DNA of 15,531 nt, from the UHGV virus genome UHGV-1641076; one strand, given 5' to 3'. This DNA comes from a virus. The translations under genes were made by a program, and so were the position numbers. Shown here one piece after another: positions 1 to 15,531 of this stretch (position 1 is its first letter; the number at the start of each line of letters is the position of its first letter). The notes below the pieces were generated by a model. That model had not been told where the DNA came from. It did not search any database and saw nothing but the letters and a program-made list of their open reading frames with translations.

Positions 1-154
1 GCCAGGTAACCGGCTCACCTTTTTCGTTCTGCTCATTACAGAAAAAATAACGTTCTCCACCGACCTCTGTCAGGTCGATTTCCCAGAGCACCACGCTGGC
101 CGACTGCTCCGCACGGGTGCATTCATTCAGTGTTTCCTGCCGGATATCCTGCAT
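1..154 (-). CDS. L: Tail tip assembly protein L, N-terminal part only (gene runs off the window start)
   Basis: Minus-strand ATG at 154..152 overlaps the M stop (ATGA). Translation from 154 downward reads MQDIRQETLNECTRAEQSASVVLWEIDLTEVGGERYFF..., matching my recall of the lambda gpL N-terminus. Truncated by the window edge. Confidence 0.85.
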   Translation of the reverse strand, partial: MQDIRQETLNECTRAEQSASVVLWEIDLTEVGGERYFFCNEQNEKGEPVTW

Positions 155-483
155 CAGTTCACCACCTGTTCAAACTCTGCGCTGAACTCAACACGCAGCA
201 TACTGACCCGCGACGACCATTTTGCGCAGGTCACCTTTATCTGCCGCCACTCATAAGGCGGCGTCCACAGAAAGGCTTTCCAGCCCCCGTGCTCTTCCAG
301 AAACGACTCCAGTACCGTGGCCTCCTCACGGGGGACAGAAAGCGTCACGCTGTACGTTTTCAGGTTGGCATTCAGCCCGGCAGGCGCTCGCTGGGAATAG
401 CCATCACCAAAGCGCACCTTTCTTACAGAAGGGACCGAAGCCACATCCATACCGGGTTTCACTTTCCAGCGGAAGGTCTTCAT
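154..483 (-). CDS. M: Tail tip protein M (109 aa)
   Basis: 109-aa ORF MKTFRWKVKPGMDVASV... with the same length and position as lambda gpM. Its start overlaps the H stop and its stop overlaps the L start. Confidence 0.9.
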   Translation of the reverse strand: MKTFRWKVKPGMDVASVPSVRKVRFGDGYSQRAPAGLNANLKTYSVTLSVPREEATVLESFLEEHGGWKAFLWTPPYEWRQIKVTCAKWSSRVSMLRVEFSAEFEQVVN

Positions 484-3041
484 CGTCCACCTCCGGAGAA
501 CAGGCCACCATCACGCATCTGTGTCTGAATTTCATCGCGGGCACCCTTGCGGGCCATGTCATACACTGCTTTCATCATCTGTGGACCTGGCAGACCATTC
601 GTACCGTCGTTCTGAATCACCACGTTGTTGTTCTGCTCAAACCTGATACCCTCTGAACGCCGCATTTGCGCCGGACTTCCGGTGCCACCGACATAACCGC
701 CGGTGGCATAGCCGCGCATCAGCCGGTAGAGATTTCCCACGCCAATCCGGCTGGTTGCCTCCTTCGTGAAGACAAATTCACCACGGTGAACAATCCCCGC
801 TGGCTCATATTTGCCGCCGGTTCCCGTAAATCCTCCGGTTGCAAAATGGAATTTCGCCGCAGCGGCCTGAATGGCTGTACCGCCTGACGCGGATGCGCCG
901 CCACCAACAGCCCCGCCAATGGCGCTGCCGATACTCCCGACAATCCCCACCATTGCCTGCTTAAGCAGAATTTCTGTCATCATGGACAGCACGGAACGGG
1001 TGAAGCTGCGCCAGTTCTGCTCACTGCCGGTCAGCATCGCCGCCATATTCTGTGCAATACCATCAAAGGTCTGCGTGGCTGCACTTTTAACCTGCGACAT
1101 ACTGTCCGTGGCGCTCTCTTCCCACTCACTCCAGCCGGACTTCAGGCCTGCCATCCAGCTCCCGCGAAGCTGGTCTTCAGCCGCCCAGGTCTTTTTCTGC
1201 TCTGACATGACGTTATTCAGCGCCAGCGGATTATCGCCATACTGTTCCTTCAGGCGCTGTTCCGTGGCTTCCCGTTCTGCCTGCCGGTCAGTCAGCCCCC
1301 GGCTTTTCGCATCAATGGCGGCCCGTTTTGCCCGTTGCTGCTGTGCGAATTTATCCGCCTGCTGCGCCAGCGCGTTCAGGCGCTCCTGATACGTAACCTT
1401 GTCGCCAAGTGCAGCCAGCTGGCGTTTGTACTCCAGCGTCTCATCTTTATGCGCCAGCAGGGATTTCTCCTGTGCAGACAGCTGGCGACGTTGCGCCGCC
1501 TCCTCCAGTACCGCGAACTGGCTCTCCGCCTTCCACAAATCCCGGCGCTGCTGGCTGATTTTCTCATTTGCTCCGGCATGCTTCTCCAGCGTCCGGAGTT
1601 CAGCCTGAAGCGTCAGCAGGGCAGCATGAGCACTGTCTTCCTGACGATCGCCCGCAGACACCTTCACGCCGGACTGTTTCGGCTTTTTCAGCGTCGCTTC
1701 ATAATCCTTTTTCGCCGCCGCCATCAGCGTGTTGTAATCCGCCTGCAGGATTTTCCCGTCTTTCAGTGCCTTGTTCAGTTCTTCCTGACGGGCGGTATAT
1801 TTCTCCAGCGGCGTCTGCAGCCGTTCGTAAGCCTTCTGCGCCTCTTCGGTATATTTCAGCTGTGACGCTTCAGTATCGCTCTGCTGCTGCGCATTTTTGT
1901 CCTGTTGAGTCTGCTGCTCAGCCTTCTTTCGGGCGGCTTCAAGCGCAAGACGGGCCTTTTCACGATCATCCCAGTAACGCGCCCGCGCTTCATCGTTAAC
2001 AAAATAATCATCCTTGCGCAGATTCCAGATGTCGTCTGCTTTCTTAAACGCAGCCTCTGCCTTAATCAGCATCTCCTGAGCGGTATCAGGACGACCAATA
2101 TCCAGCACCGCATCCCACATGGATTTGAATGCCCGTGCTGTCCTGTCTGCCCAGGTTTCCAGCGTGCCCATGTTCTCTTTCAGGCGTCGGGTCTGGTCAT
2201 CAAACCCTTTCGTTGCGGCCTCGTTCGCCGCCTGCAATGCCCCGGCTTCATCGCCGGAACGCTGCAACTGAGCAACATACGCAATCTGCTCCGCCGTCAC
2301 GTTATGGAACTGGCGTGCCATCGCCGTCAGCCCCGACGTCGGGTCTGTGGTCAGCTTCCCGAAGGCTTCAGCGACCTTGTCCACCTCCACGCCGGATGCA
2401 GAGGAGAAACGCGCCACACTCTGGCTGATGGACGCAATCTGAGCCTCACCGCTTACCCCCGCCTTAACCAGTGCGCTGAGTGACTCGCTGGTCTGGTTAA
2501 ACGTCAGCCCTGCCGCCTGCCCGGCTCTGGACAGGACCAGCATACGATCTGCCGTCAGTCCCGCCTGATTGCCGGAAAGGACCAGCGTTTTGTTGAAATC
2601 GGACAGGGTTGAGTTGCCCTGATACCAGGCATACGCCAGCGCTCCGGTCGCCACCGCCAGCGAGGTGGCCCCCACCATCGGCAGGGTGATCGCACCGGCA
2701 AGCCCCCGGAACATGGGGATCATCCCGCCGAAGGAGTCCTTCACCTGACCCCCCTGTTGCAGCAGGATCAGCCACGGACTTTGCCCGCCTGCAAGCTGCG
2801 TGGCCACGTCAGTGAACTGCGCAGGCAGCATACGCATGGCGGCTTTATACTGCCCGACGGAAATTCCCGCTTTCTGTGCAGCCAGCGCCTGCCGGTTCAT
2901 CGACTGTTCAACGACTGCCGCTGTTTTTTTCGCATCACTTTCCGTACCGGAAAAATGACGCCTGACTCTGGCCATCTGCTCGTCAAATCTGGCCGCATCC
3001 AGACTCAAATCAACGACCAGATCGCCTACCGGTTCAGCCAT
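480..3041 (-). CDS. H: Tail tape measure protein H (853 aa)
   Basis: 853-aa ORF, the same length as lambda gpH. It has a long Ala/Gln/Glu/Lys/Arg-rich helical middle, a Gly-rich hydrophobic segment near the C-terminus (GIVGSIGSAIGGAVGGGASASGG), and sits between T and M. Confidence 0.93.
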   Translation of the reverse strand: MAEPVGDLVVDLSLDAARFDEQMARVRRHFSGTESDAKKTAAVVEQSMNRQALAAQKAGISVGQYKAAMRMLPAQFTDVATQLAGGQSPWLILLQQGGQVKDSFGGMIPMFRGLAGAITLPMVGATSLAVATGALAYAWYQGNSTLSDFNKTLVLSGNQAGLTADRMLVLSRAGQAAGLTFNQTSESLSALVKAGVSGEAQIASISQSVARFSSASGVEVDKVAEAFGKLTTDPTSGLTAMARQFHNVTAEQIAYVAQLQRSGDEAGALQAANEAATKGFDDQTRRLKENMGTLETWADRTARAFKSMWDAVLDIGRPDTAQEMLIKAEAAFKKADDIWNLRKDDYFVNDEARARYWDDREKARLALEAARKKAEQQTQQDKNAQQQSDTEASQLKYTEEAQKAYERLQTPLEKYTARQEELNKALKDGKILQADYNTLMAAAKKDYEATLKKPKQSGVKVSAGDRQEDSAHAALLTLQAELRTLEKHAGANEKISQQRRDLWKAESQFAVLEEAAQRRQLSAQEKSLLAHKDETLEYKRQLAALGDKVTYQERLNALAQQADKFAQQQRAKRAAIDAKSRGLTDRQAEREATEQRLKEQYGDNPLALNNVMSEQKKTWAAEDQLRGSWMAGLKSGWSEWEESATDSMSQVKSAATQTFDGIAQNMAAMLTGSEQNWRSFTRSVLSMMTEILLKQAMVGIVGSIGSAIGGAVGGGASASGGTAIQAAAAKFHFATGGFTGTGGKYEPAGIVHRGEFVFTKEATSRIGVGNLYRLMRGYATGGYVGGTGSPAQMRRSEGIRFEQNNNVVIQNDGTNGLPGPQMMKAVYDMARKGARDEIQTQMRDGGLFSGGGR

Positions 3042-3872
3042 ACCGGACTCCTCCTGCGATCCCTTCTGATACTGTCATCAGCATTACGTCATCCTCCGTC
3101 ATGTCCGCCACATCCGGGGAAGCGGGGATAACTTCATTCCCGTCCGGGCCAAAGCAGACGCCTCCGGCAAGCCCTGCCGCTTTCTGCATCAGCACATCAT
3201 CTTCAGGCTCTTCGTCAGCCTCGCGCCGGTTCAGCAGACTGAAATCCAGCGGATGCATATCCGGATCGCTGAAAAACAGGCTGAGTACGGTGTACGTCAG
3301 CCCGGAAAAGTGCATATCCAGCAGAACATCATGAAAATAATGGGTACTGTAAAAGCGGTGCCAGTCGGCATACTCCGTGGATGACATCCCGGCAAGCATG
3401 GCGCGCCAGTCGGGTCGCCCCATCTCACGCGCCAGTTTCAGGGCAAAACTCAGCTCACCGTCGAACACTTTCCCGCAGAAACAGGCTCTGCTGGCCCGGC
3501 GTCATCTGCCTGTTCAGGTGCATCATTCACAACAAACTCAGACATACCGGACAGACGCATTACCACATTTTCAGCCTGAGCAATTGCCTCTGTGGGCCAG
3601 GTGGTAAGCACTTCCTGCTCAATTTGTTTAACGGCTTCATTCATGGACGGCATCTTTGTCTTCTGCGGATGGCTATGCCACAGGGACATCGCCACCAGAA
3701 AAGCACCGGTTCTGACGAGATCTTCCACGCTCACCTGTCGATTGAGACTGGATCCCGCCTGTTCTGCCTGTCGTTTCAGCAGGGCGAGATGCTCAATTCG
3801 CTGCAGGGCTGACAGTTCAGAAAGCGTGACGCTCACACCGTTATATTCAAATGATTCGGTTTTCAGGAACAT
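3034..3872 (-). CDS. G-T: Tail assembly chaperone G-T fusion, made by a programmed -1 ribosomal frameshift (G frame 3450..3872, T frame 3034..3468)
   Basis: Two overlapping minus-strand ORFs of 140 aa (G) and 144 aa (T) in -1 register. The slippery heptamer GGGAAAG is present at 3469..3475 (plus strand reads ctttccc), at the 3' end of G. Confidence 0.85.
3450..3872 (-). CDS. G: Tail assembly chaperone G (140 aa)
   Basis: 140-aa ORF MFLKTESFEYNGVSVTLSELSALQRIEHLALLKRQ..., same length and position as lambda gpG, immediately after V. Confidence 0.9.
   Translation of the reverse strand: MFLKTESFEYNGVSVTLSELSALQRIEHLALLKRQAEQAGSSLNRQVSVEDLVRTGAFLVAMSLWHSHPQKTKMPSMNEAVKQIEQEVLTTWPTEAIAQAENVVMRLSGMSEFVVNDAPEQADDAGPAEPVSAGKCSTVS
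3469..3475 (-). other. Slippery heptanucleotide G GGA AAG for the G to G-T -1 frameshift
   Basis: Exact GGGAAAG on the minus strand, 2 codons before the G stop, where the T frame opens. Confidence 0.8.
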
Positions 3873-3887
3873 CGCTGACTCTCCGGA

Positions 3888-4628
3888 TTAACTGTCGGTG
3901 ACGGTGATTTCTGCAACCGCAGCAAACTCACCATTACCGGATACAACCGGAATGTTGACCTTGCCTGCAGCAACACCTTTCACGGTGATGGTCATACCAC
4001 TGACCGACACGGTGGCTTTTGTTTTATCCGCAGACACCGCACGGAAGCTCTTGTCGGTTGCGCCTTCCGGCTGGAATGCCACGGTCAGCGTGGTGCTCTG
4101 CCCTTTCACCACCGAAGTGCTGGCAGGCGTCACGGTCATGCCGGTTGCCACTGTTACCGTGCTGCGATCTTCTGCCATCGACGGACGTCCCACATTGGTG
4201 ACTTTCACCGTGCGGGTGATCACTTCCTTCGCCGTCACCGCCTTACCGATACTGCTGACCCAGCCGCGGAACACATCGACCGTGCCGTTCGGGAAGCGGA
4301 TTTTATAGGCACGGGTATCCCCTTCATTAAACCACGCCAGCAGCGCCTGCTGCCCCTGCTCTCCGGGCATCCACGCCAGCGTGAAGCTGGTATCTCCGGC
4401 AGATTTCTGCCCCTGCCCGGTCGCAGTCCAGTCCGCATCTTCATCATCGAGATAGCTGTCGTCATAGGACTCAGCGGTCAGTTCGCCGGGCGTCAGGTCT
4501 TTAACTTTAGCCAGACGCGACCAGTCAACGTCTGAAAGCGGGTTCGCATAAGGGTCACCGCTCCCGTTATAAACCCACAGGGTGGTCCCGGCCCCTTTCA
4601 CCGGTGCCAGAGGATTTGGTGTTGGCAT
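3888..4628 (-). CDS. V: Major tail tube protein V (246 aa) with a C-terminal Ig-like domain
   Basis: The track ORF is 256 aa. The likely start is the internal ATG at 4628 ([20 protein letters not shown]...), which gives 246 aa and the lambda-like 7-nt gap after U. The C-terminal ~90 aa are Thr/Val/Ser-rich and beta-like, consistent with the Ig-like domain of lambda gpV. Confidence 0.9.
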
Positions 4629-4635
4629 ATCGTCC

Positions 4636-5031
4636 TCACATTTCATAGGTAATGACATAAGTCAGATCGGCTGAACTCCACAGGCCCGCATCATCGTCGC
4701 GCCGGTAGTCATAGCCACTGGCCACCATACTGGTGATCAAATCTGACAGTGCCGGGATATCGCTCATCACCGGATAAATCCGGGACTCCATCCACGCATC
4801 CAGCTCTGAATCCGGCACCTGAGCAGGCAGGAAAACTTCGATATGCAGCTCCGCCTGCCAGGTATCGCTGTCCAGCTCTTCGCCCGTGTATTCAGCGCCG
4901 GTGAGATAAACGGCAATTGCCGGAAAATCCGCCTCATCAAAAACAGCGGGGCGACCATCAAAAAGCGTCGCCCCGGTGTCATGCTTCTCCAGTGCATCCA
5001 GTACGGCTGCACGGAGTTCAGTATGTTTCAT
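4636..5031 (-). CDS. U: Tail terminator protein U (131 aa)
   Basis: 131-aa [29 protein letters not shown]..., same length and position as lambda gpU. Its start overlaps the Z stop. Confidence 0.9.
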
Positions 5032-5606
5032 CGCTTTATTACCATTCTCAGTTGATGCTGCAGCGCATAGCCCAGCTCTTTCGGAAGACGTTCACGCCGT
5101 ATCCGTTCAATATTCTGTTTAAACGCCGTGGTAAGCGGCACCGCCATCGGGATTTTCACCACATCAATGGGGTAACGGTTTTTCCCGGCCACACGCTGCA
5201 TGACATGCCACCGGCCATTTTTCAGTTGCTGAATAAACGCGCCGGGAATACGACGGTTTCCCACCACAAGCACGCTGCCGCCACCTTTCAGGGATGAACG
5301 CTGCCCCTTTTTACGACGCCTGCGGCGCGAAAGGACAACCCGCGCGTTACCCAGCTTGATTACGGGCAAATCCCCCCGGTTAACCCTGATTCTGGCCTGC
5401 GGATTTTTGACCGTGGCCCTTTTCAGCCTGGCCCTTTCCTTTACCAGTTTCCGGCGTACCTTTGTCTCACGGGCAACCTGTGCCACCGACTGCGATATCG
5501 CGGATGAAGCAACGCGGTTAATGGCCATTGCGGCGGCACCGGGCACCGCCGTTCTGCTGATACGGCTGAGGTTTTCAACGGCCTGCTCAAGACCTTTTAT
5601 GGCCAT
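5028..5606 (-). CDS. Z: Tail completion protein Z (192 aa)
   Basis: 192-aa ORF with a strongly basic RRRRRKKGQR segment, same length and position as lambda gpZ. Confidence 0.9.
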   Translation of the reverse strand: MAIKGLEQAVENLSRISRTAVPGAAAMAINRVASSAISQSVAQVARETKVRRKLVKERARLKRATVKNPQARIRVNRGDLPVIKLGNARVVLSRRRRRKKGQRSSLKGGGSVLVVGNRRIPGAFIQQLKNGRWHVMQRVAGKNRYPIDVVKIPMAVPLTTAFKQNIERIRRERLPKELGYALQHQLRMVIKR

Positions 5607-5617
5607 ACATCCCCCTT

Positions 5618-5971
5618 TCAGCGGCGACGGTTAACGGCAGGCGGTACGCCCCGCCCAAGCCAGAGATGACAGCTTCCGCCATCATCCGGCGAAATCCGGT
5701 CTATCCAGAAGTTTTCCTCACCGATGGTCAGCGTGTCGCCGCGCCGCAGCTGCCGCACATCATCAGTCCGGACAAACAGGGACGGGCTGGAGCCTTCAAC
5801 GCGCACGCCCTGTCCGGCATAGCTGATATTTTCAGGGTCATCAAAAACACCACGTATCACAGCACCGGACTGCTCACCGGATGTCATGGTGGCTGACGTT
5901 CCCATGTACCCGCGTATCGTTTCATCAGCGCGGGCAATGGCAGCATCGAACAGGTTATCGAAATCAGCCAC
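5618..5971 (-). CDS. FII: Head-tail joining protein FII (117 aa)
   Basis: 117-aa ORF MADFDNLFDAAIARADETIRGYMG..., same length and position as lambda gpFII. Confidence 0.9.
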   Translation of the reverse strand: MADFDNLFDAAIARADETIRGYMGTSATMTSGEQSGAVIRGVFDDPENISYAGQGVRVEGSSPSLFVRTDDVRQLRRGDTLTIGEENFWIDRISPDDGGSCHLWLGRGVPPAVNRRR

Positions 5972-5982
5972 AGCGCCTCCCG

Positions 5983-6369
5983 TTATTGCATTCTGGCCAG
6001 GCCACGTTCTGTCATTTCGGCTGCCACACCGGCAGAGACACGAAACGCCGTTCCCGGCAGCACAAATGCCACAGGTTCATCCCGCGTGGCGTGAAGTGCA
6101 TCGGTATGCAGCGTCACCAGTGCCACAACCGTGACCAGAGCAGCCGTATCAGTCACGGTATCCGGCTGCGCTGATACCACCTCATTTTCATGTCCGGTCA
6201 GCGCATTTTCCGGGCTGAGAGGGGTATCCTGATCGGCAGTGTCATCAAGCTCCTCTTCCAGCTCTGCCACACGGAGCGCCAGTTCTTCTTTCGTTCCCGT
6301 CAAACTGACATCGCGGTTCAGTTGCTCACCCAGCTCCTGAAGACGGGCAATCAGTTCATCTTTCGTCAT
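5983..6369 (-). CDS. FI: DNA packaging / head completion protein FI (about 128 aa from the internal ATG)
   Basis: The track ORF is 141 aa from an upstream start. The likely true start is the ATG at 6369 (MTKDELIARLQELGEQLNRD...), which leaves the same 41-nt gap after E as in lambda. Confidence 0.85.
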   Translation of the reverse strand: MTKDELIARLQELGEQLNRDVSLTGTKEELALRVAELEEELDDTADQDTPLSPENALTGHENEVVSAQPDTVTDTAALVTVVALVTLHTDALHATRDEPVAFVLPGTAFRVSAGVAAEMTERGLARMQ

Positions 6370-6410
6370 GAACTCCTCCACAGAGAGAAAATGGCCCCGA
6401 AGGGCCATGA

Positions 6411-7436
6411 TTACGCCAGTTGTACGGACACGAACGCATCAGGATCAGCCAGCAGCATCAGCGGTGCTGACTGAATCATGGTGAACTCACGCGCCGGATC
6501 GCCGGTGGTCACCCAGTTTTTCGGGTAGCGGGCAGAGGCGTTAATACCTTCGCGCTGTGCGTCCGCATCCTGAATGCAGCCATAGGTGCGCAGACCGCGT
6601 GCCTGAGTGTTTCCCAGCACCATCGTGTTGTCCGGCAGGAAGTTCTTTTTGACGTCGTTTTCCACGTACTGTCCGGAATACACGACGATCGCCGTATCGC
6701 CATACATCCCCTTATAGGACACCGCTTCGCCCAGGTCTTTTACCGCTGTCTCCAGCTCGGAATTAGAGCCGCGACGGGTATCCAGCTTCTCCTTGACGGC
6801 TTTGAAGGAACGGAACAGCGCCCAGCCTTTCGGATCAAACACGATGATATTCACCACGCCGCTGGCGTTCAGCGCGTAGGCTTCGATATCGTCGGTCGGG
6901 TCATACGTGGACTTGTCACGCTTGCTCCACTCCGTGCCGCCGGACTGCGTGATGTTGTTCGCCGCACTGCGGCCCATATCCACCTCAACCGGATCGAAGG
7001 CTTCACCGGTCATGGTGTATTTGCCCTTGAGCACGGCAGAAACTGCCTGCATCTCTTCGACCTGAGCAATGGCCAGCTCTTCGTCACGCATGTTCTGCAG
7101 GATGATGCGACGGCGGCGGTAAGCCGGGTCCGCCAGATTCTGCGGATCTTCATCCGGCAGGCGACGCAGGGTCATCTGCGGATTCACCTCATGCTTCGGC
7201 TTGACATAACCCGGCGTAAATTCAGAGGTGGAGCCGCCACGGGAACGGATAACCTCACCGGAAACAATTGGCGAAACGTACAGCGCCATGTTTACCAGTC
7301 CAGGAATTTGTGAGAGATAGACTTTCTCCGTGGTGAAGGGATAGCTCTCACGGAAAAAGAGACGCAGAAACAGCGGATCAAACTTAAATTTCTGCTCATT
7401 TGCCGCCAGCAGCTGGGCGGTTGTGTACATCGACAT
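6411..7436 (-). CDS. E: Major capsid protein E (341 aa)
   Basis: The track ORF is 350 aa. The likely true start is the ATG at 7436 (MSMYTTAQLLAANEQKFKFDPLFLRLFF...), giving 341 aa as in lambda gpE. The sequence matches lambda E in my recall. Confidence 0.93.
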   Translation of the reverse strand: MSMYTTAQLLAANEQKFKFDPLFLRLFFRESYPFTTEKVYLSQIPGLVNMALYVSPIVSGEVIRSRGGSTSEFTPGYVKPKHEVNPQMTLRRLPDEDPQNLADPAYRRRRIILQNMRDEELAIAQVEEMQAVSAVLKGKYTMTGEAFDPVEVDMGRSAANNITQSGGTEWSKRDKSTYDPTDDIEAYALNASGVVNIIVFDPKGWALFRSFKAVKEKLDTRRGSNSELETAVKDLGEAVSYKGMYGDTAIVVYSGQYVENDVKKNFLPDNTMVLGNTQARGLRTYGCIQDADAQREGINASARYPKNWVTTGDPAREFTMIQSAPLMLLADPDAFVSVQLA

Positions 7437-7491
7437 AAAAAAATCCCGTAAAAAAAGCCGCACAGGCGGCCTTTAGTGATGAAGGGTCAGG

Positions 7492-7824
7492 TTAAACGAT
7501 GCTGATTGCCGTTCCGGCAAACGCGGTCCGTTTTTTCGTCTCGTCGCTGGCAGCCTCCGGCCAGAGCACATCCTCATAACGGAACGTGCCGGACTTGTAG
7601 AACGTCAGTGTGGTGCTGGTCTGGTCAGCAGCAACCGCAAGAATGCCAACGGCAGCACCGTCGGTGGTGCCATCCCACGCAACCAGCTTACGGCTGGAGG
7701 TGTCCAGCATCAGCGGGGTCATTGCAGGCGCTTTCGCACTCAATCCGCCGGGCGCGGTTGCGGTATGAGCCGGGTCACTGTTGCCCTGCGGCTGGTAATG
7801 GGTAAAGGTTTCTTTGCTCGTCAT
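7492..7824 (-). CDS. D: Head decoration protein D (110 aa)
   Basis: Likely start at the ATG at 7824 ([27 protein letters not shown]...), giving 110 aa as in lambda gpD. Confidence 0.9.
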
Positions 7825-7833
7825 AAACATCCC

Positions 7834-8439
7834 TTACACTGGTGTGTTCAGCAAATCGTTAACGGCATCAGATGCCGGGTTATCTGCAGCCAGCGGTGCC
7901 GGTGCCCCCTGCATCAGACGATCCAGCGCAGTGTCACTGCGCGCCTGTGCACTCTGTGGTGCTGCGGCCAGAATGCGGCGGGCCGTTTTCACGGTCATAC
8001 CGGGGGTTTCTGCCAGCACGCGTGCCTGTTCTTCGCGTCCGTGAGCCTCCTCACAGTTGAGGATCCCCATAATGCGGCTGTTTTCTGCCGCAACCGCTGC
8101 GGTGATCTGCGCGTTCACGTCCGGCTGCGCCGCGCTGGCGTTCTCGCCCTCCGTCGCTGGCACCACGTCAGTAACGTCAGCCTGCGAAGCAGTGGCTGAA
8201 ACAGTTGTTGATTGAGTCTCTTTGGTCATTCGCCCTCCTGAGAGACGGGATTTACGTGCATCCAGTGCATCACGCATGACGGTGATCGCATCGGTGCTGT
8301 TAACAAGTTCATCAGCCAGTCCGGCATCAATGGCCTCCTGACCGCTGTACACTGCAGCCTCGGTATCCAGCACAGCCTGCACGGACAGGCCGGTATATGC
8401 CGACACCTTCTGTGCAAACATCCGGCGGGTTGCATCCAT
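7834..8439 (-). CDS. Nu3: Scaffolding protein Nu3 (201 aa), nested in-frame in the 3' part of C
   Basis: An in-frame internal ATG gives MDATRRMFAQKVSAYTGLSVQAVL..., 201 aa sharing the C stop. This matches the lambda C/Nu3 arrangement. Confidence 0.8.
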   Translation of the reverse strand: MDATRRMFAQKVSAYTGLSVQAVLDTEAAVYSGQEAIDAGLADELVNSTDAITVMRDALDARKSRLSGGRMTKETQSTTVSATASQADVTDVVPATEGENASAAQPDVNAQITAAVAAENSRIMGILNCEEAHGREEQARVLAETPGMTVKTARRILAAAPQSAQARSDTALDRLMQGAPAPLAADNPASDAVNDLLNTPV

Positions 8440-9133
8440 CCGGGACTGCAGTGTTTCCCGGACATCATCCGGTAGATGGCTGTAGGGGTTGCCATCCACC
8501 TTATGGCTGCCGCTGTAAATCAGCGTGATTTCCACGCCCTGTTTCTCCAGCGCAGCACCGTAATTACTGTGAGCCATCATGACGCCGATGGAGCCTGTCC
8601 GGGCGGTCTGCGTGACCAGACGCCGGGAGGCGGCGCTGGCAAGCAGCTGACCTGCACTGCAGTTCATGTCGTTGGCCAGCGCCCATACCGGTTTTATGTC
8701 TCGCACACGGGCGATGATGTCAGCACAGTCAAATGCTCCCGCCACCATCCCGCCCGGTGTGTCCATATCCAGCAGAATGCCGTCCACCATCGGATCGCTG
8801 GCAGCCTGTTGCAGACGGGCGATAATGCCGTTGTAACCGGTCATTCCCGAATACGGCTGCAGCGCCCGCGTCCGGCTGACCAGCGTACCGGACACCGGCA
8901 GCACGGCGATGCCGTTCATGACCTGATAACTGCGGGCCTGTCGTGGTCCGTCATCATCACCGGATAACGCCAGCGCCGCGGGTGCCTCTCCGGCAGTCAG
9001 GCTGTCGCCGGATACTGCATCCGTCAGGCGGCTGATCCCAAGCTGGCCTGCAAGCGCACAAAAGAAAACCCGCGCATAGGCGGGTTCAAGCATCAGCGGC
9101 TCATTAAAAGCCATGCTGGCAATATGCGGGAGA

Positions 9134-9153
<20 letters not shown>
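7834..9153 (-). CDS. C: Prohead protease / minor capsid protein C (439 aa, S49 ClpP-like family); apparent GTG start
   Basis: A 1320-nt frame whose start overlaps the B stop by 20 nt, exactly as in lambda. The initiation codon at 9153..9151 is GTG, preceded by a GGAGGAG Shine-Dalgarno. The track ORF extends further upstream, probably spuriously. Confidence 0.88.
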
Positions 9154-12834
<3,681 letters not shown>

Positions 12835-12860
<26 letters not shown>

Positions 12861-13380
12861 TCAGCAACCCCGGTATCAGTTCATCCAGCGCGGCTGCTTT
12901 GTTCATGGCTTTGATGATATCCCGTTTCAGGAAATCAACATGTCGGTTTTCCAGTTCCGGAAAACGCCGCTGCACCGACAGGGGGATCCCGTCGAGAATA
13001 CTGGCAATTTCACCTGCGATCCGCGACAACACGAAAGTACAGAATGCGGTTTCCACCACTTCAGCGGAGTCTCTGGCATTCTTCAGTTCCTGTGCGTCGG
13101 CCTGCGCACGCGTAAGTCGATGGCGTTCGTACTCAATAGTTCCTGGCTGGAGATCTGCCTCGCTGGCCTGCCGCAGTTCTTCAACCTCCCGGCGCAGCTT
13201 TTCGTTCTCAATTTCAGCATCCCTTTCGGCATACCATTTTATGACGGCGGCAGAGTCATAAAGCACCTCATTACCCTTGCCACCGCCTCGCAGAACGGGC
13301 ATTCCCTGTTCCTGCCAGTTCTGAATGGTACGGATACTCGCACCGAAAATGTCAGCCAGCTGCTTTTTGTTGACTTCCAT
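12835..13380 (-). CDS. Nu1: Terminase small subunit Nu1 (181 aa)
   Basis: 181-aa ORF MEVNKKQLADIFGASIRTIQNWQEQGMPVLRGGGKGNEVLYD... with an N-terminal winged-HTH DNA-binding region. It is the first gene after cos, as in lambda. Confidence 0.93.
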
Positions 13381-13557
13381 TGTTCATTCCACGGCCAAAA
13401 ACAGAGAAAGGAAACGACAAAGGCCCAAAAGTTCGTTTTCAGCACCTGTCGTTTCCTTTCTTTTCAGGGGGTATTTTAAATAAAAACATTAAGTTACGAC
13501 AAAGAAGAACGGAAACGCCTTAAACCGGAAAATTTTCATAAATAGCGAAAACCCGCG
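13381..13557 (-). promoter_or_regulatory. cosB terminase-binding region: three Nu1-binding R elements (approx R1 13403..13420, R2 13445..13460, R3 13504..13519) and an AT-rich IHF-type site (approx 13461..13503)
   Basis: Three copies of the GGAAACG / CGTTTCC core (R2 inverted relative to R1 and R3), with lambda-like spacing between cosN and Nu1. The reverse complement of this stretch matches my recall of the lambda left end, with a few substitutions. Confidence 0.75.
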
Positions 13558-13569
13558 AGGTCGCCGCCC
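13558..13569 (-). other. cosN: the 12-nt cohesive-end sequence GGGCGGCGACCT (reverse complement of plus-strand aggtcgccgccc)
   Basis: Exact match to the lambda cohesive end. It is flanked by ...GTTACG on the lysis side and CGCGGGTTTTCGCTATTTATGAAAATTTTCC on the Nu1 side. Confidence 0.9.
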
Positions 13570-13822
13570 CGTAACGGCCCGGATCGCCGGAAAGGACCCG
13601 CAAAAATGATAATGGTTATCATTTTCAATGTAGTCCAGTTTCTTCCACCATCGCACCGGACAGGCGACTATGAGGGGACAACGCCGCGCTCCGTTAACGC
13701 GGTAAACCCCGGTGTGTATCGTTTTTGATTATCCCCGCACACTCGCGCAGAGGAGTCTCCCTGTCGGGCTGCGGTCTCTGTTAATGAGGGAATACAGCGA
13801 CGATACGGCGCATCAACAAAAC

Positions 13823-14296
13823 TTATTTCAGGCACTGAGTGCGGATATAGTCCTGTGCCCCTTCCAGTTGCTTGTGCATCGTCATCAGCCGCTCTCTGAG
13901 GGTGAAATAATCCCGTGTAACGGTGTCTGCCAGTTGGGGGCCGGTTGCATTATCCACGCCGGAGGTGGTGGGGGCTTCACGCACGGAGCCTGGACAGGTG
14001 GCGTTGATCCGCAGGCGCTTACGACCAGCGGCAACATCAGCGCGCAGAGTTTCATTTTCAGCTCTCGCATCGGATAATTCCCTCGAGTATTTTGCATCGA
14101 GCGCAGCAACATCGCGCTGGCGCACCTGCATATCAGTAATGGTTGCGTTCGCCAGCTTCAGTTCACTGGCTTTGTTATCGCGCTGCGCTTTGTAGGTAAT
14201 CGCGTTATCACGGTAATGGTCTGTTGCCATCCACAGCGCACCACAGGCCACCAGCAGAATAACGATAAACGCGGAAAGCATTCGGTTTATGTTCAC
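13823..14296 (-). CDS. Rz: Rz i-spanin (inner-membrane spanin subunit); start is either the GTG at 14296 (157 aa) or the ATG at 14281 (152 aa)
   Basis: N-terminal TMD ([16 protein letters not shown]) followed by ...[16 protein letters not shown]...[24 protein letters not shown]..., clearly similar to lambda Rz. The GTG at 14296 overlaps the stop of the upstream small ORF (GTGA), suggesting translational coupling. Confidence 0.88.
13885..14070 (-). CDS. Rz1: Rz1 o-spanin (outer-membrane lipoprotein), embedded in the +1 frame of Rz (about 61 aa)
   Basis: Embedded [64 protein letters not shown]. It has a lipobox (LVVSAC, or VSAC) and a proline-rich stretch, and resembles lambda Rz1. The start is assigned to the internal ATG at 14070. 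Confidence 0.85.
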
Positions 14297-14424
14297 CCCA
14301 GCAACCCCGACGAAGACAACATCATCCAGGCCATGGAAAGAAAAAGAGCAACCAGCATTAGTGAAAATGAAATGCCGACAATTACACAGAGGATCTTCGC
14401 CAGCGTTATGAGTTTGTCTGACAT
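14293..14424 (-). CDS. Small hydrophobic protein (43 aa, one predicted TMD), function unknown
   Basis: ATG at 14424 preceded by a strong Shine-Dalgarno (AAGGGAGGA, 6-nt spacer). Product [43 protein letters not shown]: a short positively charged N-terminus, then about 25 hydrophobic residues. The stop overlaps the Rz GTG start. Confidence 0.6.
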
Positions 14425-14438
14425 GCTTAATCCTCCCT

Positions 14439-14621
14439 TCACGATTTCAACGCAATGACCAGTTTTGCCAGCCCATACAGCATCGGGGACACAGCAACAC
14501 CGACCGCCACCCACTTAATGGCAAAAGCCAGTGCTCTGCTGATGTCATCAGTTACAGGCGCTTTCAGTTCAAGGCCATTTTTCATAGTCAACCTCAACAG
14601 AATTCGTTTATACTTCGCCAT
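14439..14621 (-). CDS. Small membrane protein (60 aa from the ATG at 14621, or 48 aa from the ATG at 14585), function unknown
   Basis: Product [60 protein letters not shown]. The second ATG has a GAGG 6 nt upstream. There is one Gly/Ala-rich hydrophobic segment. Its stop codon TGA lies inside the Shine-Dalgarno of the next small gene. The track's upstream start at 14654 is a GTG inside the terminator hairpin and is unlikely. Confidence 0.55.
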
Positions 14622-14654
14622 GTTCTCCCTTGCCTTACTCAAGGTCAGAAACAC

Positions 14655-14697
14655 AAAACCCCGCTTGGTGCCAACAAACGGGGTTTTTACTTTTATT
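14655..14697. terminator. Intrinsic-terminator-like hairpin, potentially bidirectional, between the endolysin gene and the small ORFs
   Basis: Stem AAAACCCCG (14655..14663) paired with CGGGGTTTT (14679..14687), with a loop containing the palindrome TTGGTGCCAA. On the plus strand it is followed by TTTTTACTTTTATT; on the minus strand by UUUUGUGUUU. Confidence 0.6.
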
Positions 14698-14777
14698 CAC
14701 TTACGTTTCGCCAGTTCGCAGGATTTCGTGTTATCCGCCCGCGTGGCCATACCTTATTTTTCAGCAAAATATTCTGC

Positions 14778-15311
14778 TTATCTGTCGATTCCCCAGCACG
14801 CCAGCGCGCTCTCCTGGTCACGACGGGATACCTGACCATAACAGTTATTTGAGCGGATACGGCAGTCTCTGCCACCGTCCTTAATCCACCAGCGAATCGC
14901 CTCACACGCTCCCCTGCGGTCACCAGCATTCAGCCGCTTATAAAACGTCGACGGGAAACACTTACCGGGGCCAATGTTATAGGGACAGAATGACGCTATA
15001 CCCGCTTTCTGTGGTTCGGTCAGTGGAACTTTAATATTGCGCTCCACCCATGCCAGCGCCTTATCCCGTTCAATGGCATTAACCTGGTCGCATTTTTCCT
15101 TCGACAGTTTCATGCCCGGAATAACAGGTTTACCATCCACCATTGTGGCACCGCGGCAGATGGTCCAGATACCCGCACCATCACGGTATGCCGTTGTGTG
15201 GTTACCTTCTTTTTCATCCAGAAACTGGTCGAGAATATCAGGCGCAGGCGCACCGATGGCAATCAACGCCAGAACGGCAGCCGACAGGCCATATTTGATT
15301 TTGGTGTTCAT
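14778..15311 (-). CDS. R: SAR endolysin, T4-lysozyme-like (GH24) muramidase, 177 aa
   Basis: The N-terminus MNTKIKYGLSAAVLALIAIGAPAP is a weakly hydrophobic Gly/Ala-rich signal-anchor-release type segment. It is followed by EGNHTTAYRDGAGIWT, i.e. the E-x8-D-x5-T catalytic triad spacing of T4 lysozyme. The gene sits upstream of Rz/Rz1. Confidence 0.85.
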   Translation of the reverse strand: MNTKIKYGLSAAVLALIAIGAPAPDILDQFLDEKEGNHTTAYRDGAGIWTICRGATMVDGKPVIPGMKLSKEKCDQVNAIERDKALAWVERNIKVPLTEPQKAGIASFCPYNIGPGKCFPSTFYKRLNAGDRRGACEAIRWWIKDGGRDCRIRSNNCYGQVSRRDQESALACWGIDR

Positions 15312-15367
15312 GGATATTTATCAGGATTTATCGGTTCCGAATCCCTGGATATGTTAAATCTTCAGCC

Positions 15368-15394
15368 CGCCAGCGGTAGGACACTGGCGTTTTT
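15368..15394 (+). terminator. Plus-strand-oriented terminator-like hairpin in the non-coding stretch between the endolysin and IS1
   Basis: Stem CGCCAG (15368..15373) paired with CTGGCG (15384..15389), a 10-nt loop, then TTTTT (15390..15394). On the minus strand it is preceded by an A-tract instead, so it is oriented for plus-strand transcripts. Confidence 0.4.
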
Positions 15395-15476
15395 CCTGAT
15401 GGCTGAAATATATCTGACAATTTCAGTAGAGGATTAACCATGCATAACGATCAACATAATTATGATTTATGCCTGC

Positions 15477-15531
15477 GGTGATGCTGCCAACTTACTGATT
15501 TAGTGTATGATGGTGTTTTTGAGGTGCTCCA
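15477..15531 (+). mobile_element. IS1 insertion sequence, left terminal inverted repeat and first about 55 bp; the element continues beyond the window
   Basis: GGTGATGCTGCCAACTTACTGATTTAGTGTATGATGGTGTTTTTGAGGTGCTCCA matches my recall of the IS1 left end (terminal IR GGTGATGCTGCCAACTTACTGAT, followed by the lead-in to insA). insA would start just past the window edge on the plus strand. Confidence 0.85.

Follow-up and report, generated by a model that had tools for sequence, protein, structure and literature searches.

Introduction

IS1 is an insertion sequence of 768 bp, in which the insA and insB′ frames are joined via a programmed −1 frameshift. The element shows a preference for AT-rich target DNA, and its insertions are classically polar on the genes that follow. 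Regarding the late genes of lambdoid phages, Q antitermination resists terminators, and a Q-modified RNA polymerase should largely read through a simple IS1. SAR endolysins, of which the R protein of phage 21 is the type, carry a weakly hydrophobic N-terminal transmembrane segment rich in Gly, Ala, and Ser, which is able to leave the membrane; the endolysins of phages 21 and P1 are exported without a holin.

Published work describes Q as the antiterminator needed for the whole late transcript (PMC10695390; PMC7171158). It also describes an outward-facing −35 element within the IS1 inverted repeat, from which hybrid promoters form when a correctly spaced −10 is present (PMC8764528; PMC9330008 Table 1), and most IS1 insertions leave the neighboring gene unactivated (PMC8764528). 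Furthermore, IS1 is known to generate adjacent deletions (PMC9330008).

In this work, we analyzed the UHGV virus genome UHGV-1641076, a stretch of 15,531 nt (hereafter, the window), which carries late genes of a lambda-like prophage and ends inside a copy of IS1. The element is a known one with known behavior, and the site it occupies, at the edge of a scaffold, is previously unrecorded but unremarkable.

Results

Identity and orientation of the IS1 end

The original prediction held that the window closes on an exact IS1 terminal repeat, with insA directed away from the prophage genes and the endolysin gene about 165 bp away. The alignments agree with it on all of these points. Positions 15477–15531 (plus strand) correspond to the left end of an IS1A-type element, with 55/55 identity to thousands of IS1 copies over the only 55 nt of the element that lie inside the window (8,195 of 9,303 matching E. 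coli records; E = 9e-20). The left terminal inverted repeat (IRL), 23 bp long with sequence GGTGATGCTGCCAACTTACTGAT, occupies positions 15477–15499 and is followed by 32 nt of insA leader, the insA start codon beginning at the next base past the window end. Indeed, in an annotated copy (L013), the CDS of the “IS1-like element IS1A family transposase” begins right after the 55-nt match and on the same strand. The insA gene thus reads rightwards, out of the window, and the late genes lie on the minus strand, in the opposite direction. The gap between the IS1 junction and the lysozyme start at 15311 is exactly 165 nt (15312–15476), and the 30 nt beside the junction are 67% A+T. The alignments of every relative examined end exactly at 15476, where the IS1 terminal repeat begins.

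Support for the junction from independent assemblies

Searching with the rarer window proteins H (tape measure) and C, terminase A being too common to be informative, we reached a metagenome scaffold and contigs of bacterial isolates. The scaffold LIUW16-1_SAMN05414984_METAG-scaffold_1835 (ENA ERZ28595376, L029; 15,529 nt) matches positions 1–15529 of the window exactly over its whole length. Since the window is a whole scaffold ending in a high-copy repeat, its right end marks an assembly break, where the assembler could not cross the repeat, and has no biological meaning as an end. Both window ends are in fact breaks of this kind, the left one lying within the tail gene L and the right one 55 nt into IS1. 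A contig end within a repeat should not be taken as a sign of a crippled prophage.

Among the isolates, one contig (GCA_014583145.1, L027) starts at window position 15473 and shows 0 mismatches over 15,473 nt, and another (GCA_013077485.1, L014) starts at about 15471, as placed by gene offsets. Because these independent isolate assemblies break 3–5 nt from the junction, the repeat boundary is real and common to a lineage.

A join of prophage and IS1 created by chimeric assembly of the metagenome scaffold could be suspected from the fact that the scaffold follows the high-copy repeat for the length of a single k-mer (55 nt) and then stops. However, both isolate assemblies, in which the prophage is 100% identical, break off 3–5 nt from the same position, and the uninterrupted relatives all diverge at exactly 15476, the precise start of the IS1 terminal repeat. 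The chimera was rejected on the coincidence between the contig breaks of the isolates and the junction, and we regard such an artifact as extremely improbable. That a real IS1 end begins at 15477, within the small gene described below, is in our judgment nearly certain.

The insertion site in uninterrupted relatives

The segment 13634–15476 shares 99.8–100% DNA identity with three uninterrupted loci (L001, L002, and L009), from prophages including those of UPEC 26-1 and O104:H4 2011C-3493. At the site, L001 reads ...tatgcctgc immediately before the insertion point and aagccataaatg after it. In all three loci this point lies within a CDS of 104 aa (WP_000551290.1, hereafter ORF104), located on the strand opposite to the late genes. 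The ATG of ORF104 corresponds to window position 15440, with a GAGG ribosome-binding site 7 nt 5′ of it, and IS1 follows the first base of codon 13; the window therefore retains the start, 12 codons, and 1 nt of the gene (15440–15476, plus strand), on the basis of the CDS annotated in L001 and L002 and of its translation. ORF104 is destroyed by IS1. The gene belongs to phrog_1853, a family of unknown function, and gave no Pfam and no PADLOC match; PADLOC returned no match for the DUF1327 protein or for the two small membrane proteins (see below) either.

In the relatives, ORF104 shares with a DUF1327 gene a spacer of 1.26 kb between the holin and endolysin genes. Moving upstream, the order is ORF104, the DUF1327/YdfR-family gene, a 71-aa class II holin, a SASA-family esterase, tRNA genes, a DNA methyltransferase, and Q. 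The holin stop codon is ~1.1 kb upstream of the insertion site, while Q and the late promoter are 6–7 kb upstream of the lysozyme gene and of the site. The spacing of holin, ORF104, and lysozyme is kept in all 10 of the 10 loci recovered with the lysozyme protein, most of them with a called DUF1327 gene. The plaque-forming phage PhiR12_1 has the order holin, DUF1327, opposite-strand small ORF, lysozyme, 60-aa gene, 43-aa gene, Rz, and Nu1. The DUF1327 gene is annotated inconsistently (L001 7936–8271 vs L009 8742–9548): for the same sequence, the gene caller of the collection gives an intact 268-aa protein and RefSeq PGAP a truncated “YdfR family” pseudogene.

The expectation that IS1 had landed on the late promoter, the holin, or a Q-dependent leader is not borne out, the position being codon 13 of ORF104 in relatives with 99.9–100% identity. 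The late promoter and the Q leader were rejected as candidates for the site given the location of Q 6–7 kb upstream in the relatives, and the holin, expected at the site, is found elsewhere, at the distance given above. Judging from the conserved gene order, the insertion is in an accessory gene, within a spacer of the kind usual in this phage group.

IS elements have targeted this spacer more than once. ORF104 is interrupted after residue ~56, in other E. coli isolates (GCA_052223975.1 and GCA_053097625.1), by an IS21-family element with an rve transposase and IstB (L031 681–2585; L032 809–1057), giving an 82-aa fusion ORF (P0012). Two further ORF104 variants (P0010 and P0011) are fused after residue ~61 to sequence running antisense into the DUF1327 region, and correspond to internal spacer deletions in some E. 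coli genomes. The spacer thus tolerates insertions, as seen from the IS21-family element, and the occurrence of this interruption and of the deletion variants suggests that it is dispensable.

Lysis genes and hairpins

The endolysin gene (14778–15311, minus strand) encodes a 177-aa lysozyme of the phage 21/RrrD type (PF00959; phrog_7), with sequence homology to PDB 3hde, 3hdf, and 4zpu. The protein carries the catalytic triad motif E35-x8-D44-x5-T50, in agreement with the E-x8-D/C-x5-T pattern. Residues 8–23 (GLSAAVLALIAIGAPA) are hydrophobic and 56% Gly/Ala/Ser, a composition consistent with an endolysin of the SAR type.

A terminator-like hairpin with a 13-bp stem followed by a T-rich run (14655–14687, minus strand; −18.9 kcal/mol, z = −3.3) directly follows the lysozyme stop codon, ahead of the small ORFs, Rz, and the head genes. 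This hairpin lies inside the late operon, which implies a dependence of late transcription here on antitermination. The 128 nt that separate the lysozyme start from the ORF104 start contain another stable hairpin, followed by TTTTT (15361–15407, plus strand; fold −20.5 kcal/mol, z = −3.2). It could shield ORF104 from antisense transcription coming through the lysozyme gene.

Between the lysozyme and Rz genes, two conserved minus-strand genes encode small predicted membrane proteins of 60 aa (14439–14621; phrog_1115) and 43 aa (14293–14424; phrog_4906), both from families of unknown function; they are annotated in the relatives and in phage PhiR12_1. These two hydrophobic proteins could be lysis accessory proteins. 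The Rz spanin follows (13823–14296, minus strand; PF03245, phrog_13), with Rz1 embedded in it (13885–14070, minus strand; PF06085), Rz1 being called in L027, the isolate contig of identical sequence.

Packaging, head, and tail genes

All the substantial genes of the window are on the minus strand and make up a lambda-like late region. As in a lambdoid late operon, the endolysin, Rz/Rz1, cos, terminase, portal, head, and tail genes are found on one strand. A lambda-type cosN was located as an exact string at 13558–13569 (minus strand): the 12-nt sequence GGGCGGCGACCT, which is the cohesive end of phage lambda. The cos region 5′ of Nu1 (13558–13569, with flanks to 13380) is nearly identical to that of phage lambda, the cohesive end included, and on this ground the packaging signal of the prophage is intact.

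Positions 1–13380 (minus strand) hold Nu1, A, W, B, C, D, E, FI, FII, Z, U, V, G, T, H, M, and the start of L, as assigned from the ORF list, from the Pfam labels on identical contigs, from family scans, and from protein comparison. The products include terminase A, the portal, an S49 protease/scaffold, and a tape measure protein of 853 aa. The packaging, head, and tail genes of the window are full length in comparison to the relatives, with L present only for its first 153 nt. No known RNA family was found in the window using Rfam.

A mosaic boundary is visible at ~13634–13640. On its right, the lysis module is 99.8–100% identical to the prophages of O104:H4 and UPEC 26-1, while the head/tail module on the left of ~13634 reaches only about 96% identity with any complete E. 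coli genome. Near this boundary, at 13778, lies the end of a MEGAHIT contig assembled from another metagenome (L028).

Searches for the junction and for the other IS1 end

The 151-nt sequence spanning the junction was covered at 0 places among 5,426 complete E. coli genomes, and an exact 40-mer of the left junction was absent from genome_contigs and metagenome_contigs. The right junction, predicted as IRR followed by 7–10 nt and then by AAGCCATAAATG..., was sought in the same two collections using a gapped pattern and was not found. The 9 bp adjoining IS1, TATGCCTGC (15468–15476), would be the target-site duplication if the insertion is simple; a second copy was not found in the collections searched. 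The search for ORF104 homologues gave 13 clusters, none of them N-terminally truncated, and 10 guessed ORF104 products lacking the N-terminus, such as a companion contig would encode, had no exact counterpart among ~15 billion proteins. These negatives for the junction and its products are weak: the sources are drafts in many pieces, indexing is poor for genes cut by a contig end, and the ORF104 of this strain may have one residue changed. Taken together, they speak slightly in favor of a deletion or rearrangement next to IS1.

Candidate outward promoter at the IS1 end

A consensus scan identified a promoter-like hybrid site at 15462–15490 (minus strand; 9/12 positions), composed of a −35 TTGGCA in the IS1 IRL, a 17-nt spacer, and a −10 AATCAT in the flank. 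The site points at the lysozyme gene, and its −10 matches 4/6 consensus positions. The same scan gave 5 such sites over 2.2 kb, while 2.3 ± 1.4 are expected by chance from shuffled sequences. An outward promoter from this IS1 end has a modest sequence basis: the site is a candidate, and its activity is speculation.

Discussion

IS1 stands as a physical break between the block of endolysin, spanin, cos, head, and tail genes and all upstream sequence, as originally proposed: these genes are on one side of the element, and their normal drivers are on the other side or lost. Somewhat better than even, in our estimate, are the chances that an IS1A-type copy transposed into a lambda-like prophage as a simple insertion. 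Such an event would have added 768 bp with a 9-bp duplication of TATGCCTGC and inactivated ORF104, and it predicts the sequence ...AAGTTGGAGTCATTACC + TATGCCTGC + AAGCCATAAATGAGCGG... at the other end, followed by the remainder of ORF104, DUF1327, and the holin. A normally polar element would then be placed in the late transcript between holin and endolysin. Late transcription from the Q-dependent promoter, 6–7 kb upstream, would enter IS1 antisense to insAB, and the Q-modified polymerase would largely read through the simple IS1, so that the endolysin, spanin, head, and tail genes would be expressed at a reduced level but not silenced. Attenuation rather than loss of late expression is expected because Q antiterminates and because the late transcript already has to pass the terminator-like hairpin 3′ of the lysozyme gene. 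If the insertion is simple, the strain is a natural test of the read-through of a whole IS1, located between holin and endolysin, by Q-modified RNA polymerase.

The uncoupling of the late operon from its promoter, which had been put forward as the probable consequence of the insertion, would hold only if a deletion or rearrangement is tied to IS1 or if the Q-modified polymerase cannot cross the element. We give about one chance in three, in round terms, to a scenario in which IS1 marks the boundary of a deletion, of an inversion, or of an IS1–IS1 recombination. Holin, Q, and the early half would no longer be adjacent, and the block from endolysin to tail would be an orphan without its native promoter, that is, one more defective lambdoid remnant. 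Several observations go in this direction: IS1 makes adjacent deletions (PMC9330008), nothing upstream of IS1 is seen in these assemblies, neither a right-hand junction nor a truncated ORF104 product emerged from the collections searched, and the junction occurs in 0 of 5,426 complete E. coli genomes. Absence is, however, weak evidence here, for the reasons given with the searches (draft fragmentation, poor indexing of partial genes, and a possible residue difference in ORF104). Moreover, the full set of 20 late genes, together with cos and the lysis genes, is intact and does not differ between the metagenome and the isolates, which suggests a recent event and not a long decay.

Lysis control could also have changed through the IS1 end itself, if the hybrid promoter formed by the IRL −35 and the flank −10 drives transcription of the SAR-like endolysin gene, perhaps along with genes further downstream, without Q. 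The TTGGCA-17-AATCAT site does read toward the lysozyme gene, an outward −35 and hybrid promoters are documented for IS1 (PMC8764528; PMC9330008 Table 1), and, with its SAR-like N-terminus, the endolysin would probably not need the holin for export. On the other hand, the −10 matches at only 4/6 positions, the number of sites (5 vs 2.3 ± 1.4 in 2.2 kb) leaves room for chance, most IS1 insertions do not activate the neighbor (PMC8764528), and selection would act against unregulated expression of an endolysin; besides, the terminator-like hairpin after the lysozyme gene would halt an unmodified polymerase before Rz and the head genes. Altogether, we consider such a promoter effect unlikely. Still further down in probability, and in our opinion hardly to be expected, is the combination of the two scenarios, in which IS1 would bound a domesticated or orphaned late block whose regulatory half is gone, with the hybrid promoter driving a Q- and holin-independent SAR endolysin, and perhaps the particle genes, in a lineage now represented by a metagenome and several isolates.

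IS1 insertions in E. coli prophages are commonplace. Over its 55 terminal bases, which take in the 23-bp IRL and the insA leader, the element is the same as annotated IS1A copies (IS1A/IS1R type, Escherichia coli and Shigella); the insertion site alone is new, considering its absence from the complete E. coli genomes searched. The AT-rich flank is in line with the target preference of IS1. The IS21-family insertion of L031 and L032 hits the same small gene and the same holin–endolysin spacer as IS1 does here, whereas the family of the element differs, as does the position, after residue ~56 of ORF104 vs 12 for IS1. Lastly, in comparison to the Stx-type/lambdoid lysis cassettes (class II holin, DUF1327, 177-aa lysozyme, and Rz/Rz1), the cassette is here cut by IS1 beyond the lysozyme-proximal 165 nt, with holin and DUF1327 outside the window, while the gene order from lysozyme to Nu1 is the same.
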